The position numbers and the translations under genes are program-made. From contig JAYVZS010000141.1 of assembly GCA_043783155.1 (NCBI GenBank), positions 5,428 through 69,427 of the forward strand: a DNA stretch of 64,000 bases. The letters are read 5' to 3'. This document shows, piece after piece, positions 11,467 to 41,204 of the stretch (within the stretch, counting starts at the first letter, position 1; each line of letters begins with the position of its first letter). The notes under the pieces are model-generated. The model was not told where the DNA came from, did not search any database, and saw only the letters and a program-made list of their open reading frames with translations. This DNA is from Bacteroidota bacterium. GTDB lineage: Bacteria; Bacteroidota; Bacteroidia; AKYH767-A; 2013-40CM-41-45.

Positions 11467-12156
11467 TTGATCAACGGAAATTTCTTACGTACTTACATAC
11501 TTAAGCACATCAACACTTCAACACTTCCGCCCTTGCATACCGTCTTCATCAACGACAAGCCACTACATTTCATCAGCACGTATGATAAAATCGAACTTGA
11601 AAATGCGAAAGAGAATGTGATTTTTTCCGAGCATGATAAAAGCATGGCTGAACTAATTTCTATACTTGAAAATAAAGACGAACCATCCGAATTATTTTAT
11701 CTCTCTGAAAATCCGGATGCAAGTTGGGAGCTTTTTCTTTCTCAATGTTCATTGATTGAAGCTGCCGGCGGACTGGTACAAAATAAAAAGGATGAGTTTC
11801 TCCTGATCTTCCGGCTTGGCAAATGGGATTTACCAAAAGGAAAACTTGAATACGATGAATCGGCTGAAGAAGCCGCCATCCGGGAAGTAGAAGAAGAATG
11901 CGGCATCGACAAACTCTCAATATTAAAAAAGCTTCCGATTACTTTTCATACGTATATCCTGAACAAAAAAAGAAAATTAAAAAAGACTCATTGGTTTCTG
12001 ATGCAAACAGAAAGCAGCGATAATCTTATTCCTCAAAAAGAAGAAGACATACAGGAAGCCCGCTGGATGAAAGAAAAAGAAATTAAGTCGAAGGTATTTG
12101 CAAATACGTATACATCTGTTGGCGAATTGCTCCACAACTTTCTTGAGAAAAAATAG
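11467..12156 (+). CDS. NUDIX hydrolase with an N-terminal extension (the ORF as drawn begins at a TTG; the first in-frame ATG is at 11644)
   Basis: The Nudix box is GKWDLPKGKLEYDESAEEAAIREVEEECGI. Confidence 0.7.
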   Translation: MINGNFLRTYILKHINTSTLPPLHTVFINDKPLHFISTYDKIELENAKENVIFSEHDKSMAELISILENKDEPSELFYLSENPDASWELFLSQCSLIEAAGGLVQNKKDEFLLIFRLGKWDLPKGKLEYDESAEEAAIREVEEECGIDKLSILKKLPITFHTYILNKKRKLKKTHWFLMQTESSDNLIPQKEEDIQEARWMKEKEIKSKVFANTYTSVGELLHNFLEKK

Positions 12157-12164
12157 TTTGATCC

Positions 12165-12620
12165 TTAAATTTTTACCCCGGCCGGTACAAATGCCGATAC
12201 ATCACCGTTGTAAAGTAAAATATCGCGCACAATAGTAGAAGAAATGTGCGACAATGCCGGATCGGAAACAAGAAAAACAGTTTCAATCTCCGGAGCCATG
12301 GTACGGTTCATCTGTGCGATGGCGCGTTCAAATTCAAAATCGGCTGACGTGCGCAAACCCCGAAGAATATAATTGGCATTGATCTCTTTGCAAAAATTAA
12401 CGGTGAGACCGCTGTAATGCATCACCTTGATTTTTGATTCTCCGGCAAAAACATTTTTGATAAAATGTTCGCGCCTGTCCTGGGAAAAATAGTAATGCTT
12501 GCCGGTATTCTGCCCGATACCAATTATAATTTCATCGAAGAACGAAAGAGCCCGTTTCACAATGCTTTCATGACCACGTGTGATGGGATCGAAGGAACCG
12601 GGGAAGACTGCAATTTTCAT
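12165..12620 (-). CDS. coaD: phosphopantetheine adenylyltransferase
   Basis: The N-terminus MKIAVFPGSFDPITRGHESIVKRA carries the HxGH-type nucleotidyltransferase motif. The ISSTIVR motif is near the C-terminus. Confidence 0.9.
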   Translation of the reverse strand: MKIAVFPGSFDPITRGHESIVKRALSFFDEIIIGIGQNTGKHYYFSQDRREHFIKNVFAGESKIKVMHYSGLTVNFCKEINANYILRGLRTSADFEFERAIAQMNRTMAPEIETVFLVSDPALSHISSTIVRDILLYNGDVSAFVPAGVKI

Positions 12621-12650
12621 CAGCATTAAATATATGATGCGAATATACGA

Positions 12651-12754
12651 AACCGTTTAAAATTCATTTCAAATATTCGCTATTGAATATGCTTCGACTT
12701 CGCTCAGCATGACCTCGTGCACGATGTCACCCTGAGCGAAGTCGAAGGGTGAGC
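12651..12754 (-). repeat. ~105 bp intergenic repeat element, copy 1: an AT-rich arm followed by a nested GC-rich hairpin (CTTCGACTTCGCTCAG ... CTGAGCGAAGTCGAAG, with an inner TCGTGCACGA palindrome)
   Basis: Nearly identical to the reverse complement of 33097-33220. The 16 nt arms 12693-12708 and 12732-12747 are exact reverse complements. Confidence 0.7.
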
Positions 12755-12815
12755 CGGCTATAACATTTTCTCACATAGAAATTTAAACAGTTTCTACAAA
12801 GAGAGAGATAATAAA

Positions 12816-13355
12816 TCATTTCATTCCTTTGAAAATACTAAATGCGCAATTCCCGTATTTCCGTATTTCATCGGGCTGGACAATGCTTTGAAGTTTTCGT
12901 TTTGCCTGGTGCTCGACGATTAACCAGCCACCTTCATTCAACAACTTTTTTTCCATCACGATGTCGGGAATTTTATCTGTTGTTACCAATTCATAAGGCG
13001 GATCAGCAAAAATGATGTCGTAGGTTGAATCATTCTTTTCAAGAAAACGAAATACATCGGCACGAACTGTTTTTGCCTTTTGCAAATCGAGTTTCCTGAA
13101 TGTCTCACTCGCAAATTTAACACAGTGAACATTTTCATCCACGGCAACAATATTCGAACTTCCACGTGAACCGAATTCAAAACTGATGTTGCCGGTACCG
13201 CAGAATAAATCAAGCACAGAAATTTCTTCAAAGTCAAAATAATTCATCAGGATATTGAAGATACCTGTTTTTGCGAAGTCAGTGGTGGGTCGCACAGGCA
13301 GCTGATTTGGAGCCGTGATAATTTTTCCCTTAAAGATACCGCTTATGATTCGCAC
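12816..13355 (-). CDS. rsmD: 16S rRNA (guanine966-N2)-methyltransferase
   Basis: The SAM-binding motif LDLFCGTGNISFEFGSRG and the DPPY motif (IIFADPPYE) are present. It is ~180 aa long. Confidence 0.85.
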   Translation of the reverse strand: MRIISGIFKGKIITAPNQLPVRPTTDFAKTGIFNILMNYFDFEEISVLDLFCGTGNISFEFGSRGSSNIVAVDENVHCVKFASETFRKLDLQKAKTVRADVFRFLEKNDSTYDIIFADPPYELVTTDKIPDIVMEKKLLNEGGWLIVEHQAKRKLQSIVQPDEIRKYGNCAFSIFKGMK

Positions 13356-14334: not shown

Positions 14335-14409
14335 GCGCTGTTAGCTCAGTTGGTTTAGAGCATCGCCTCGACAAGGCGGGGGTCAGTGGTTCGAGTCCAC
14401 TACAGCGCA
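14335..14409 (+). tRNA. tRNA-Val (anticodon GAC)
   Basis: A cloverleaf can be drawn by hand: acceptor GCGCTGT/ACAGCGC, D-stem GCTC/GAGC, anticodon stem TCGCC/GGCGG with loop TCGACAA, T-stem AGTGG/CCACT with loop TTCGAGT. The architecture is almost identical to E. coli tRNA-Val(GAC). Position 33 is C rather than U. Confidence 0.85.
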
Positions 14410-31333: not shown

Positions 31334-31514
31334 CCAATAAAACAATTTAGAAGTGTGAATGTAAAAATTACCGCGCAATCCGCAATTTAAAATCCAAAAT
31401 TCGCATTCTTCAACCTCTGCCACATTGGCAAGGATGCATATTAAATCTATCTTTGCGCCCATGTCATTTGAAGAAAATAAAATACAGGATGAATCGCGGC
31501 AGGGTGAAGTGTAC

Positions 31515-32990
31515 ATGACCTCACTCAAACCCTCTCCAAAAGAGAGGGCTTCCGGAGAAGTAAAAAAACTTTATTTAGAAAGTTATGGTTGCGCCATGAA
31601 TTTTTCTGACAGCGAAATCGTGGCTTCTATTATGACTGATCTCGGATTCATCACCACGAACACAACCGATGATGCAGATGTGATCTTCCTCAACACCTGT
31701 GCAATACGCGATAATGCAGAGTTGAGAATCTGGGCTCGCTTAAAAGATTTCAGAGGCATGAAGCGGAAAAATCCTTCGCTCATCGTTGGCGTTCTTGGTT
31801 GCATGGCCGAACGGTTGAAATCAAAATTATTAGAACAGGAAAAATTAGTTGACATTGTAGTGGGTCCGGATTCATACCGCGATTTACCGAATTTAATTGC
31901 CACTGTTGATTCGGGACAAAAAGCCGTGAATGTTTTATTGAGCCGTGAAGAAACGTATGCTGAAATCAGCCCGGTTCGTTTAGGAAGCAATGGCATCTCA
32001 GCATTTATTACCATCACACGCGGATGCGACAACATGTGTTCATTTTGTGTCGTTCCTTTCACACGCGGAAGAGAACGCAGCCGCGAACCTGAATCCATTA
32101 TCAACGAAGCACGACAACTTTCTGAAAACGGTTACAAGGAAATTACATTGCTGGGACAAAATGTGGATTCATATTTATGGCATCCGGATACGAATACAAA
32201 GAAGGAAATTTTTAAGAGAAATGAAGAAGCGGAGATTGAGGGAAACGGAGAGGCGGAGAATCGCCCACTCGCCGATTCACCCGCTCGCCGATTCGAATAC
32301 AAAGATGCAGTGTCGTTCGCCGATCTCCTCGAAATGGCAGCGAAAGTAAATCCTGACATGCGTGTGCGTTTTTCAACTTCCAACCCACACGATATGACGG
32401 ATGCAGTGTTGCACATCATGACGAAATATGAAAACATCTGCAACTACATTCACCTTCCTGTTCAAAGTGGAAACAGCGATGTACTTGAGAGGATGAACCG
32501 TGGTTACTCCCGCGAAGATTACATCAAACGAATTGAATCCATCCGGAATATTATTCCGGGCTGTGGAATTTCTACCGACATCATCACCGGTTTTTGCGGA
32601 GAGACGGAGGAAGAACACCACGAAACTCTTTCGCTGATGGAATGGGCCGGTTATGAATATGCATACATGTTTAAATATTCCGAGCGTCCAGGAACACAGG
32701 CAGCACGTCAGTACAAAGATGATGTTGTTGAAGAAATAAAAGCACGACGACTGACGGAAATCATCAACATGCAATCGAAACTTTCTCATCAAAGCAATCT
32801 GAAAGATCTGAATAAAACATTTCGCGTTTTAGTTGACAGCGTTTCAAAACGTTCCGACAAACATTTGTGTGGAAGGAATGATCAGAATAAAGTGATTGTA
32901 TTTCCAAGGGAACAATATAAGCCAGGAGATTATGTGAATGTTTTGGTTACAGACTGCACACCGGCAACATTGCTCGGTGAGGTTGTTTAA
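31515..32990 (+). CDS. miaB: tRNA-i6A37 methylthiotransferase
   Basis: The MTTase N-domain ([13 protein letters not shown]), the radical-SAM CxxxCxxC motif ([13 protein letters not shown]) and a TRAM domain at the C-terminus are present. The start is uncertain between 31461 and 31515. There is a low-complexity insertion at 32241-32295. Confidence 0.9.
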
Positions 32991-33096
32991 AAATGTTGGG
33001 ACGAGAGGCGGAGGACGAGGGACGATAGCGACAATATAATTCAAAAGATGATTCAAAAACTGTTTAAATTTCTATGCAAGAAAATGTTATAGCCAG

Positions 33097-33220
33097 CGCA
33101 CCCTTCGACTTCGCTCAGGGCGACATCGTGCGCGGGGTCATGCTGAGCGGAGTCGAAGCATGAGCGGAGTCGAAGCGCATGTGCAATAGCAAATATTTGA
33201 AATGAATTTTAAACAGTTTC
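33097..33220 (+). repeat. ~120 bp intergenic repeat element, copy 2 (reverse orientation relative to copy 1, with a 17 bp internal tandem duplication)
   Basis: CCCTTCGACTTCGCTCAGGGCGACATCGTGCGCGGGGTCATGCTGAGCGGAGTCGAAG followed by CAATAGCAAATATTTGAAATGAATTTTAAACAG. Its reverse complement aligns base-for-base with 12651-12754. Confidence 0.7.
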
Positions 33221-33275
33221 TTATTCCCTTCGTGAAAAAATTACCAACTCATAAAATATGCAGCCCCTGTCTCAC

Positions 33276-33332
33276 GTCTTGATTCTTGACTCTCATATCT
33301 TGCGTCTTGATCCTTATATCTTGATTCTTGCT
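33276..33332. repeat. three tandem ~19 bp repeats (CGTCTTGATTCTTGACTCTCAT / ATCTTGCGTCTTGATCCTTAT / ATCTTGATTCTTGCTTCTAAT) immediately upstream of the sigma-54 activator gene
   Basis: Direct inspection. It shares the motif ATCTTG(A/C)(T/G)TCTTG with 30655-30705, 28031-28134 (on the reverse complement) and 58272-58330. Confidence 0.6.
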
Positions 33333-33343
33333 TCTAATAATAT

Positions 33344-34573
33344 ATGACTCCTCTCGAAATAAAACAACGCTTCGGCATCATCGGCAACTCACCATTGCTC
33401 GATCATGCAATTAATGTAGCGCGACAGGTTGCCCCGACTGAAATCTCCGTGCTGATCAGCGGAGAAAGTGGCGTCGGTAAGGAAGTATTTCCTCAAATCA
33501 TTCATCAACTGAGCGCACGCAAACACGGACCGTACATCGCTGTAAACTGCGGCGCTATCCCCGAAGGAACGATTGACTCCGAATTATTCGGACATGAAAA
33601 AGGTTCATTTACAGGAGCGCATGAAGCACGCAAAGGATATTTTGAAGTATCAAACGGCGGAACTATTTTCCTGGATGAAGTGGGTGACCTACCTCTTAAC
33701 ACACAGGTCCGTTTACTTCGTGTACTTGAAACAGGTGAGTTCATCAAAGTGGGGTCATCGAAAGTGCAGAAGACAAACGTTCGTGTTGTCGGCGCTACCA
33801 ACGTGGATTTGTTGAGAGCGATTGAGAACGGAAAATTCCGCGAAGATTTGTATTATCGTTTAAACACCGTTCCGATCCGTGTTCCTCCGCTGCGCGACCG
33901 GAAAGAAGACGTGTATCTACTCTTCCGGAAATTCGCTTCCGATTTCGCTGAACGGTATCGCATGCCTGCTTTGGTATTGCAACCCGATGCGCAAAAATTC
34001 CTGACCGATTACCGCTGGCCGGGAAATATCCGACAGTTAAAAAATATCACCGAACAACTTTCTATCCTCGAAAAAAACCGTGAGATAACCGGTGAAACTT
34101 TATTGCGTTACTTACCTGCTGCTCCGTTCAGTAATTTGCCGGTGCTGATGAAAGACGGAGCAAAAGTTGGCGGAGAATTTTCGGAACGAGAACTGTTATA
34201 TAAGGTGTTGTTCGATATGAAGAAGGACATGAACGACATGAAGCAACTCGTAAACGACCTGATGCAAAATTCAGGCGGTGATCCCGAGTGGAAAGAACGC
34301 AATGCAAATATTCTCAATAATCTTCGCGTTGAACCTACTCCTTATATCCAGACATCGGATCCTAACGTTACCATACAACCAAATGTAGAGTCTGCGCCGG
34401 CTCATCATCCTCATGTGGAAGTGGAAGAATCACTATCATTGGAGGAAAAAGAAAAAGAGTTCATCAAAAAAGCATTGATCAAACACAAAGGCCGAAGGAA
34501 AAATGCAGCGAGAGAGCTGGGGATTTCGGAGAGGACGCTGTATAGGAAGATGAATGAGTATGGGATCCACTGA
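33344..34573 (+). CDS. sigma-54-dependent transcriptional activator (AAA+ domain plus C-terminal Fis-type HTH) with no N-terminal sensor or receiver domain
   Basis: Walker A GESGVGKE, GAFTGA (as GSFTGA), an ESELFGHEKG-like block and RWPGNIRQL are present. The C-terminus reads AARELGISERTLYRKMNEYGI. Confidence 0.85.
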   Translation: MTPLEIKQRFGIIGNSPLLDHAINVARQVAPTEISVLISGESGVGKEVFPQIIHQLSARKHGPYIAVNCGAIPEGTIDSELFGHEKGSFTGAHEARKGYFEVSNGGTIFLDEVGDLPLNTQVRLLRVLETGEFIKVGSSKVQKTNVRVVGATNVDLLRAIENGKFREDLYYRLNTVPIRVPPLRDRKEDVYLLFRKFASDFAERYRMPALVLQPDAQKFLTDYRWPGNIRQLKNITEQLSILEKNREITGETLLRYLPAAPFSNLPVLMKDGAKVGGEFSERELLYKVLFDMKKDMNDMKQLVNDLMQNSGGDPEWKERNANILNNLRVEPTPYIQTSDPNVTIQPNVESAPAHHPHVEVEESLSLEEKEKEFIKKALIKHKGRRKNAARELGISERTLYRKMNEYGIH

Positions 34574-39358: not shown

Positions 39359-39384
39359 CCCTGCCTCATCAGCAGGGTTTTTTA
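39359..39384 (+). terminator. rho-independent terminator after groEL (CCCTGC-ctcatca-GCAGGG followed by a T-run)
   Basis: A 6 bp GC-rich stem followed by TTTTTTATTTTT. Confidence 0.75.
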
Positions 39385-39394
39385 TTTTTACCAG

Positions 39395-39437
39395 CGCCGT
39401 CATTGCGAGCGTAGTGAAGCAATCCCAAAGCACCACC
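39395..39437 (+). repeat. CATTGCGAGCG...GAAGCAATCCC hairpin repeat, copy 1
   Basis: GTCATTGCGAGCGTAGTGAAGCAATCCC matches the reverse complement of 40911-40950 (CCATTGCGAGCGAAGCGAAGCAATCCC). Confidence 0.65.
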
Positions 39438-40206: not shown

Positions 40207-40766
40207 ATGAACAGAAAGCAAAAGCAGGTGATCCTGCCGGATGAAACCATCATCAGTAAGATTTATTTAATAAGGAAGCAGAAAGTTATGGTCGATAAAG
40301 ATCTTGCTTTACTCTACGGGGTACTTGTTAAGAATCTTAATAAAGCAGTCAAAAGAAATGCGAAACGATTTCCCCCTGATTTTATGTTTCAACTTACGGA
40401 GAAGGAACATGATTCTCTAAGGTTCCAAATTGGAACCTTAGAGAAAGGAAAACATTCAAAGTATTTACCTTATTATTCACAGAACAAGGAGTTGCTATGC
40501 TTTCAAGCGTTCTTAATTCTGAAAGAGCGGTGGAGGTAAACATTCGAATCATCCGCATATTTACTAAGATGCGGGAAATGATCATGACGAATAAAGACAT
40601 TTTGCTGAAGCTTGAATTATTGGAAAAAAGAATGATGAAGCAAGACGAAAAGACAAAAAAACATGATGATGAAATACAATTGATCTTTACGTACCTAAAA
40701 GAGTTGCTGAATCCTTCGCATCCGTCAATGAAAAAAATTGGTTACAAAAGGTATAATGATGAGTAG
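40207..40766 (+). pseudogene. ORF6N (KilA-N-like) domain gene disrupted by a single-base deletion frameshift near 40481
   Basis: ORF 40207-40539 reads ...RGQKVMVDKDLALLYGV..KNLNKAVKRNAKRFPPDFMFQLTEKE...KYLPY. The +1 frame then continues FTEQGVAMLSSVLNSERAVEVNIRIIRIFTKMRE... (40497-40766). Together they reconstitute the canonical ORF6N domain pattern LPYAFTEQGVAMLSSVLNS. Confidence 0.55.
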
Positions 40767-40910
40767 AGGTTTTGGTGGAACAAACCTGGCTTCAGGTCTA
40801 AGATCACAATTTGTGACCTTAGAGATTGATGCCTTCGATTCTTTTTTAATGTTTACTATGACAAAAGCAGCTAACTTCCTAGCCCTGACCGAAATGGAAA
40901 GCCCGCGCAG

Positions 40911-40975
40911 AGTTGTTGCGAGCGGGGGGATTGCTTCGCTTCGCTCGCAATGGATGGCGTGGGTTCGCTCAACGA
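40911..40975 (-). repeat. CATTGCGAGCG...GAAGCAATCCC hairpin repeat, copy 2 (opposite orientation to copy 1)
   Basis: GTTGCGAGCGGGGGGATTGCTTCGCTTCGCTCGCAATGG has the arms TTGCGAGCG / CGCTCGCAA. The ORF-track ORF 40738-40992 is a spurious translation across it. Confidence 0.65.
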
Positions 40976-41204
40976 CCCGGCGCGGCTTGTAATGGAGGGC
41001 AGGCAGAATGGAAAATAGAAGTTGTACAGGATCGCTCCAAATCTTTAAAATCTTTTAATTTTGAGCCCTTGTAAACATGAAATATAATTTTAATCTTTGG
41101 CGCGAAATCGTCGATGATTTATGTGCCCGCAATTCAAATTATAATACTCACAAAGGCAGACGTTAGCGGGTTCCGCCTGACTTTTGTGAACAAATTAACA
41201 CCTA

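Follow-up and report, generated by a model that had tools for sequence, protein, structure and literature searches.

A candidate REP-dimer- or MITE-like non-coding insertion in two operon-internal spacers of a Bacteroidota genome

The repetitive extragenic palindromic (REP) sequences tagged CGTC or TGTC form short, imperfect palindromes and carry an unpaired head of the (C/T)GTC type (Di Nocera et al. 2013, PMC3733652). They are dispersed singly or as dimers, joined head-to-head or tail-to-tail, which can refold as one long hairpin; heterodimers have differing stems, and the spacers between units can be small palindromes. Most lie just downstream of open reading frames (ORFs), between co-directional or convergent genes, and some are found in frame inside ORFs. 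The described CGTC families have stems of 8-9 bp and loops of 4-5 nt, and the CGTC class has no known dedicated transposase (PMC3733652). Here, we describe an element found twice in a 64-kb stretch of contig JAYVZS010000141.1 from an uncultured Bacteroidota bacterium (hereafter the window), once between rsmD and coaD and once between miaB and a gene for a sigma-54 activator. The element is an ordinary inserted repeat of a known kind, of which it is a new member, and not a gene. Among described classes, the REP superfamily comes closest to it, in particular the CGTC/TGTC-tagged REPs with their head-to-head dimers. With a probability of about 60%, we read it as a low-copy, lineage-specific, non-coding insertion that resembles REP dimers (bacterial interspersed mosaic elements, BIMEs) or miniature inverted-repeat transposable elements (MITEs). 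This reading rests on its terminal inverted repeats, on its core, a dimer of a dispersed unit, and on the empty orthologous sites in relatives.

Among bacterial MITEs, the Correia elements of Neisseria (NEMIS or CREE) and the ERIC/IRU, RUP and Nezha families are non-coding sequences of about 100-160 nt with terminal inverted repeats. Correia-type elements insert between genes and are co-transcribed. The long hairpins that they form may serve as substrates of RNase III, and outward-facing promoter-like boxes are present in some. Such families number tens to hundreds of copies, have longer terminal repeats than those described below, and duplicate a defined target (TA for Correia). In T4-type phages, promoter-early stem-loop (PeSL) cassettes join a stem-loop to a promoter-like sequence in modules dispersed between genes.

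Two copies with common ends around a hairpin dimer

The two copies of the element lie on opposite strands and are identical at 136/146 (93%) of their aligned positions. They extend as follows:

12649..12794 (146 nt), minus strand: element copy 1, delimited by alignment to copy 2 and by its fold
33056..33220 (165 nt), plus strand: element copy 2, delimited by alignment to copy 1; identical sequence in L100, L101 and L103

A preliminary description of this DNA had reported a unit of about 105-110 bp that matches almost base for base on the opposite strand. The opposite strands are borne out. The similarity continues for about 40 nt on the side that had been omitted, which gives the limits listed here, and the match is less than base for base, with 93% identity and a 17-nt duplication in copy 2. 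Arm patterns of 31 nt and 38 nt each have two matches in the window versus none expected from shuffles, and a chance origin of the copy pair is therefore excluded.

Each copy is bounded by a 12-13-nt terminal inverted repeat, GAAACNGTTTAAA / TTTAAACAGTTTC, which had been overlooked earlier. It has four exact matches in the window, positioned exactly at both ends of both copies, a count that none of 100 shuffles reached. The similarity between the copies stops sharply at this repeat. Beyond it, the flanks of the two sites show no significant likeness (p = 0.2 and 0.34), and a proposed homology of the downstream flanks, including a look-alike of the coaD start, was rejected (p = 0.2). Inside the terminal repeats lie AT-rich arms. 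The conservation of an AT-rich tail in both copies had been recognised before, and the arm on the other side likewise has a conserved partner.

12649..12661, unstranded: outer terminal inverted repeat of copy 1, GAAACCGTTTAAA, pairs with 12782-12794
12782..12794, unstranded: outer terminal inverted repeat of copy 1, TTTAAACAGTTTC, pairs with 12649-12661
33057..33068, unstranded: outer terminal inverted repeat of copy 2, AAACTGTTTAAA, pairs with 33208-33220
33208..33220, unstranded: outer terminal inverted repeat of copy 2, TTTAAACAGTTTC, pairs with 33057-33068
12662..12688, minus strand: AT-rich arm of copy 1 on the side of the downstream gene; the sense strand reads AATATTTG then ATGAATTTTAAAC
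12753..12781, minus strand: AT-rich arm of copy 1 on the side of the upstream gene, conserved in copy 2; outside the coordinates of the preliminary description

The GC-rich core enclosed by the arms is a head-to-head dimer of units of about 28 nt, in each of which a short stem closes the 14-nt loop TGAGCGAAGTCGAA.

12725..12752, plus strand: unit A of copy 1, TGTC-ACCC-TGAGCGAAGTCGAA-GGGT-GA, head-to-head with unit B
12689..12714, minus strand: unit B of copy 1, GGTC-ATGC-TGAGCGAAGTCGAA-GCAT (head, local stem, 14-nt loop, local stem)
12715..12724, unstranded: palindromic 10-nt spacer TCGTGCACGA between the unit heads of copy 1
33098..33125, minus strand: unit A' of copy 2, TGTC-GCCC-TGAGCGAAGTCGAA-GGGT-GC
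33136..33161, plus strand: unit B' of copy 2, GGTC-ATGC-TGAGCGGAGTCGAA-GCAT
33162..33178, plus strand: 17-nt tandem duplication of part of unit B' (GAGCGGAGTCGAAGCGC), in copy 2 alone

Both units of copy 1 have a local stem of their own, and the two stems differ in sequence (TCACCC/GGGTGA in A, ATGC/GCAT in B). The core had previously been described as nested palindromes, with 16-nt arms around an inner palindrome. This structure is present in copy 1, where CTTCGACTTCGCTCAG (12692-12707) and CTGAGCGAAGTCGAAG (12732-12747) surround TCGTGCACGA, but it does not hold for copy 2, in which one arm is mismatched (CTGAGCGGAGTCGAAG) and the inner palindrome is degenerate (TCGTGCGCGG).

Both sites are found with the element, identically, in independent assemblies from the same organism (L043, L100, L101, L103 and L128), and the element is therefore genuine sequence and no assembly artefact. 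Logan short-read contigs from the same organism break inside the element at both sites: L129-L134 have their 3' ends about 35 nt into copy 1, and L102, L104 and L105 have their 5' ends in copy 2, about 30 nt short of its end. Short-read assemblies break systematically at the element, exactly at both copies. It has no coding capacity. The 29- and 30-aa ORFs called across the copies are spurious, and its six-frame translation, used as a protein query for such ORFs over other copies, had no match.

Insertion sites and alternative origins

At the first site, copy 1 follows the rsmD stop (12816) after 21 nt and precedes the coaD start (12626); both genes have the minus strand as sense strand.

12816-13355, minus strand: rsmD
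12165-12626, minus strand: coaD

The relatives available for this site are L127 and L135/L136, with identities in a neighbouring protein of 79% for L127 and 66% for L135 (DUF3822 neighbour for L135/L136). The rsmD-coaD spacer of L135/L136 is 51 bp long and does not contain the element. Just upstream of coaD, right after the element (window 12627-12650, minus strand), we found TTCGTATATTCG, which is conserved in L135 (about 11470-11505) and at the end of L127. Thus, the native coaD-proximal sequence is intact and the element lies upstream of it. Judged from its sequence, TTCGTATATTCG is probably the native coaD promoter or a regulatory box, as its TAtaTTcG resembles the Bacteroidetes -7 motif. 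A tRNA gene between the DUF3822 gene and a LysE-family gene (14335-14409, plus strand) is the sole Rfam match at gathering threshold in the window.

At the second site, copy 2 lies between the miaB stop (32990) and the activator start (33344), 65 nt past the stop.

31425-32990, plus strand: miaB
33344-34573, plus strand: sigma-54 activator
33222..33254, plus strand: remnant of a PF05635 gene, its last 10 codons and stop (YSLREKITNS*), directly after the element and not part of the repeat

At this site, five relatives were compared (L106, L108, L111, L233 and L234), with activators 88-91% identical to that of the window, and none of them has the element. In L111 the miaB-activator spacer is 80 bp, and in L108 it is 172 bp and holds other repeats. 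A 119-aa gene of the PF05635 family (23S_rRNA_IVP, four-helix-bundle) occupies the site in L106 and L233, and L234 has a version shortened to 76 aa. The miaB-activator spacer (window 32991-33055 and 33255-33343; L106 9523-10000, L233 1261-1821, L234 1292-1850) is a variable hot spot among these relatives. Their PF05635 gene lies between inverted simple repeats of the type GAGAATCAAGAGGCAAGAATCAAGA / TCTTGACTCTTGCATCTTGACTC, and together they look like an intervening-sequence-style cassette. The window retains the 3' end of this gene and the downstream simple-repeat block of the cassette. As only the 3' end of the gene is left, the element, judging from the sequence comparison, has displaced most of the PF05635 gene once resident here. 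One of the two insertions therefore cost the genome a small resident gene. The genome also carries the gliding and type IX secretion system (T9SS) genes gldL/M/N and PorP/SprF.

The presence of the PF05635 gene in the relatives, with its 3' end kept in the window right after the element, might suggest that the element is itself the decayed front end of this cassette, comprising the upstream region and the first codons. The element does end in ATGAATTTTAAACAG (MNFKQ), resembling the gene starts MTHNFKQL or MAHHFKQL. However, ATGAATTTTAAACAG is repeated inverted at the other end of the element, and is therefore a terminal inverted repeat and not a gene start. The upstream regions in L106, L233 and L234 are unrelated to the arms and contain no hairpin, site 1 has no trace of such a gene, and a different candidate for the old start appears, on a weak reading of the alignment, to be kept upstream of the element. 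An origin from the PF05635 cassette is thus extremely improbable.

We searched for further copies of the composite, that is the dimer with its arms and ends. The arm 19-mer TTTCAAATATTNGCTATTG matched 42 loci in genomes representing one per GTDB species, all by chance and none extending, and AATAGCNAATATTTGAAATG matched 15 loci in JGI metagenomes, all chance 20-mers that did not extend. The hairpin-arm junction TCGAAGGGTGNGCNGGCTATAAC had 0 matches in viral contigs. Profiles (nhmmer) of the whole element and of each arm recovered only the known copies from about 300 kb of relatives' loci, and a full-text literature search with element DNA strings and peptides of the spurious ORFs found nothing relevant. 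Since neither arms nor termini were found elsewhere in these scans, the composite is low-copy and lineage-specific, and its core unit is cosmopolitan. The earlier expectation of many more copies thus holds for the hairpin unit, which is widespread, but not for the composite, with none in some 20 kb of additional contig and chance matches alone for the arms.

Several of these results weigh against a mobile REP- or MITE-like insertion. Only two composite copies are known, and a further 10 kb of the source contig on either side of the window revealed no third in about 84 kb in total. With the AT-rich arms found nowhere else in GTDB species genomes or JGI metagenomes, multiplicity, a hallmark of REPs and MITEs, is not shown for the composite. 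No other element in the window has the same termini. With the ends placed at GAAAC...GTTTC, a possible GTA duplication would flank copy 1, and no direct repeat was found to flank copy 2, leaving no unambiguous target-site duplication at either copy. Gene tables covering about 57 of the 64 kb of the window contain no transposase families, including Y1_Tnp. Finally, L127 has no GC hairpin, and its sequence at site 1 matches the left end of the element marginally (p about 0.05), so that part of an arm could be old resident sequence; an older relative of the element may once have been at this site.

The same observations can be explained by a single copying event, in which one spacer with a REP dimer was duplicated at the other site through illegitimate or palindrome-stimulated recombination, yielding a two-copy duplication and no mobile family. 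There are just two copies with none found elsewhere, and there is neither a target duplication nor a matching autonomous element. Arrival at site 2 went with the loss of about 330 bp of the resident gene, which is replacement-like rather than a clean insertion, and the marginal match in L127 at site 1 fits as well. A segmental copy does not, however, predict that a 12-13-nt inverted repeat exactly bounds the segment at both ends of both copies. Moreover, site 1 is empty in the 66% relative, and the copies have diverged by 7%, which indicates that the copying event was not very recent. We regard such a one-off duplication as unlikely, if well worth weighing.

As already described, each copy faces the same way with respect to the co-directional genes around it (rsmD to coaD on minus, miaB to the sigma-54 activator on plus). 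For two copies, such agreement has a prior of 50% (p = 0.5). On the sense strand, the whole of copy 1 folds with -63.4 kcal/mol (z = -9.0), versus -56.5 on the antisense strand. Copy 2 folds with z = -6.0, and its hairpin has -42.0 in sense versus -35.1 in antisense. Both folds far exceed those of shuffled sequence in stability. The advantage of the sense strand comes from G.U pairs at four of the five imperfect stem positions; it is not significant and is a hint of tolerance at the RNA level.

The favoured interpretation of the preliminary description was a punctuation cassette whose hairpin would stop or process the upstream transcript and whose AT-rich arm would be the promoter for coaD and the sigma-54 activator. 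Both copies do share their orientation relative to the genes, and in both the sense strand folds better than the antisense strand. The Bacteroidetes -7 box has the consensus TAnnTTTG, and AATATTTG, in the arm nearest the downstream gene, matches it at 5/6 positions. Nevertheless, no terminator-like site was found in 12500-12900, where the hairpin is followed by GCATATTCAATAGC and no T tract. The element contains no exact TAnnTTTG and no upstream TTTG/TTG (-33 element) at the expected spacing, and the degenerate AATATTTG-type motif occurs 259 times in 128 kb (both window strands), about once per 500 nt. The terminator-plus-promoter proposal is not supported. As TTCGTATATTCG is retained downstream of the element, coaD needs no new promoter; the same gene pairs are expressed in relatives that lack the element, and the agreement in orientation of two copies has p = 0.5. 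A punctuation cassette therefore seems distinctly unlikely.

A small-RNA gene in two paralogous copies had also been proposed, together with a check against Rfam. The strong fold conserved in both copies and the intergenic position would suit such a gene. However, Rfam returned no match for the element at gathering threshold in the window, and in E-value mode the sole hits were to eukaryotic hairpin models, meaningless and far below threshold. Neither a promoter nor a terminator consensus is present, the element is missing from relatives with about 90% protein identity, and its core comes from a dispersed repeat family that also occurs inside ORFs. A near-perfect palindrome that folds on both strands is, in addition, what is expected of DNA repeats. 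We consider a small-RNA gene very improbable.

AT-rich arms with their terminal inverted repeat wrap the hairpin dimer, and under the REP- or MITE-like reading the 146-nt whole is the unit that was copied. It would have inserted secondarily into two operon-internal spacers, rsmD-coaD and miaB-sigma-54 activator, either through an enzyme that acts in trans and has no gene close by or through palindrome-driven recombination. The inserted element may then be co-transcribed with its flanking genes and fold as a long hairpin (about -63 kcal/mol), which would most plausibly shield the upstream message at its 3' end, attenuate read-through or provide an RNase III-type processing site, by analogy with enterobacterial REPs and BIMEs. 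The downstream genes would retain their own native upstream sequence. Any role of the element is probably that of a co-transcribed structural hairpin inside two operons. For annotation, both loci should be marked as repeat insertions and not as genes or regulators.

A dispersed family of hairpin units

The hairpin unit at the core of the element has a far wider distribution. The 18-mer CTGAGCGAAGTCGAAGGG was matched in 56 IMG/VR contigs and the 16-mer CTGAGCGAAGTCGAAG in more than 120, among the matches listed. Both scans together comprise at least 146 loci with a G+C content of 32-73% and at least 145 distinct unit copies. From the listed matches of these two scans, we compiled 159 non-redundant units, which include 145 distinct 32-mers (alignment A4). 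The units are found in many phage and bacterial contigs that are unrelated to each other, in spacers as well as in frame inside ORFs. They consist of a (T/C/G)GTC-type head and a 3-6-bp stem that differs between units and closes an invariant 12-14-nt loop; the loop TGAGCGAAGTCGAA holds two CGAAG mini-hairpin motifs. CGTC or TGTC heads are present in 28/145 units. Of the 159 units, 115 stand alone, and for the other 44 an inverted partner lies within 120 nt.

The stem of the unit is supported by covariation. In the non-redundant units, the pairs flanking a fixed C-G are complementary in 140/159 and 136/159 cases, versus 62 and 53 expected. Among the 145 distinct units, the two pairs beside this fixed C-G are formed in 133 and 131 units, with double changes in 56 and 64. 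The covariation score of the stem is 0.505 compared with 0.194 in shuffles (0/500 reach it), and a slid partner gives at most 0.188. In these 145 units, G.T wobbles favour the GAGCGAAG strand (39 versus 17 A.C, p = 0.005). The GAGCGAAG strand is antisense to the flanking co-directional ORFs in 15/20 units on contigs below 55% G+C, with crude ORF calls (p = 0.04). If upheld, the wobble bias and the antisense placement imply that the folded strand is often not the mRNA strand.

One 36-kb phage contig (IMGVR_UViG_3300038435_000085; L164, L175 and L186) carries eight single units, all on the same strand and all in or beside short intergenic gaps. Their loops are identical, and their stems include TCAC/GTGA, TAAC/GTTA, TAGC/GCTA and CCAC/GTGG. 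Relatives of the window organism have a few units. In L135, the units GCTTCGACTTCGCTCAGCATGAC (59-81) and CCTTCGGCTCCGCTCAGGATGAC (261-283) lie in frame within the uninterrupted ORF of an N6_N4_Mtase-domain methyltransferase. The 64-kb window itself contains two dimers, one partial duplicate and the following two related singletons, whose loops differ slightly:

39398..39425, plus strand: single unit CGTCATTGCGAGCGTAGTGAAGCAATCC, CGTC-ATTGC-GAGCGTAGTGAA-GCAAT-CC, of the same loop family and outside the composite
40928..40957, minus strand: single unit CCATCC-ATTGC-GAGCGAAGCGAA-GCAAT-CC, in a GC-rich patch

The first of these is located a few bases past the groEL terminator (about 39361-39389), a classical hairpin with a T tract. 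The second is part of a GC-rich patch in an AT-rich spacer (40880-41010), which holds further GC-rich inverted repeats and is probably another composite repeat. The patch is downstream of an ORF6N-domain gene that is seemingly split by a frameshift (ORFs 40207-40539 and 40497-40766).

No consistent gene neighbourhood accompanies the unit. On contigs below 55% G+C, 102 ORFs adjoin units and represent 53 Pfam families, none of which recurs more than twice. No transposase or nuclease recurs beside the units, and no transposase, Y1/HUH or GIY-YIG family is among the 25 listed families of these ORFs. An association of such GC-rich hairpins with small GIY-YIG nuclease genes was considered and dropped, with no such family among the 102 ORFs. 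Compared by eye, the loop fits neither a tRNA T-arm nor a hammerhead core. Eleven unit-bearing phage loci had no Rfam match at gathering threshold, and blastn of the hairpin against PLSDB plasmids had no match either.

It is conceivable, if doubtful, that the unit is a single-stranded-DNA recognition hairpin of a trans-acting enzyme that spreads it across phyla. In that case, the unit would be a class of REP whose signal is specified by the loop and not by the head, and the window element would be one vehicle built on it. The family is easily defined by its fixed loop and covarying stem, seems to be absent from Rfam, and may deserve a census.

Comparison with described repeat classes

The eight co-oriented single units along one phage contig are reminiscent of PeSL cassettes. 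Unlike these, the window unit has no promoter consensus, and it also occurs in bacterial chromosomes and inside ORFs. The units of the loop family in frame in the L135 methyltransferase ORF recall Rickettsia palindromic elements (RPEs) and intragenic REPs. In contrast to RPEs, both window copies are intergenic, and there is no sequence relation.

The element shares with Correia-type MITEs its size, terminal inverted repeats, intergenic sites and fold as a long hairpin. It differs from them in having two copies, 12-13-nt repeats, no clear target duplication and a REP-like dimer that is shared with unrelated genomes. With respect to what defines a MITE, terminal inverted repeats mark the limits of the unit in both copies. 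Presence and absence alternate at orthologous sites, as the element is missing from L135/L136 at site 1 and from L106, L108, L111, L233 and L234 at site 2. Multiple copies and an autonomous partner with the same ends were not found, with two copies in about 84 kb.

The REP superfamily offers the closest comparison. The units are short palindromic stem-loops of about 28 nt, within the 20-40 nt of REPs and with a stem backed by covariation, and they form inverted dimers, head-to-head in both window copies. They are extragenic and near the 3' end of an upstream ORF, 21 nt past the rsmD stop and 65 nt past the miaB stop, as is usual for REPs (PMC3733652). REPs usually number more than 100 per genome; the 64-kb window holds two dimers, one partial duplicate and two related singletons. 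In contrast to the GTAG REPs mobilised by REP-associated tyrosine transposases (RAYTs), the units have no GTAG head, and Y1_Tnp is absent from the gene tables (about 57 of 64 kb) and from the 102 unit-adjoining ORFs.

With the CGTC/TGTC-tagged REPs, the element has in common the head motif, heterodimers, palindromic spacers, a position after ORFs, intragenic copies and the lack of a dedicated transposase. Measured against the CGTC tag, unit A has the head TGTC, unit B GGTC and the unit at 39398 CGTC, and 28/145 units of the family have CGTC or TGTC. The 3-6-bp covarying stem and the 12-14-nt loop set the window unit apart from CGTC families 1-4, so it is not among the four families of PMC3733652. 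Unlike in described REPs, the dimer is set in AT-rich arms with a terminal inverted repeat of their own. In this AT-rich Bacteroidota genome, the element shows how a GC-rich hairpin unit of wide occurrence can be combined with local AT-rich ends and inserted into conserved operons.

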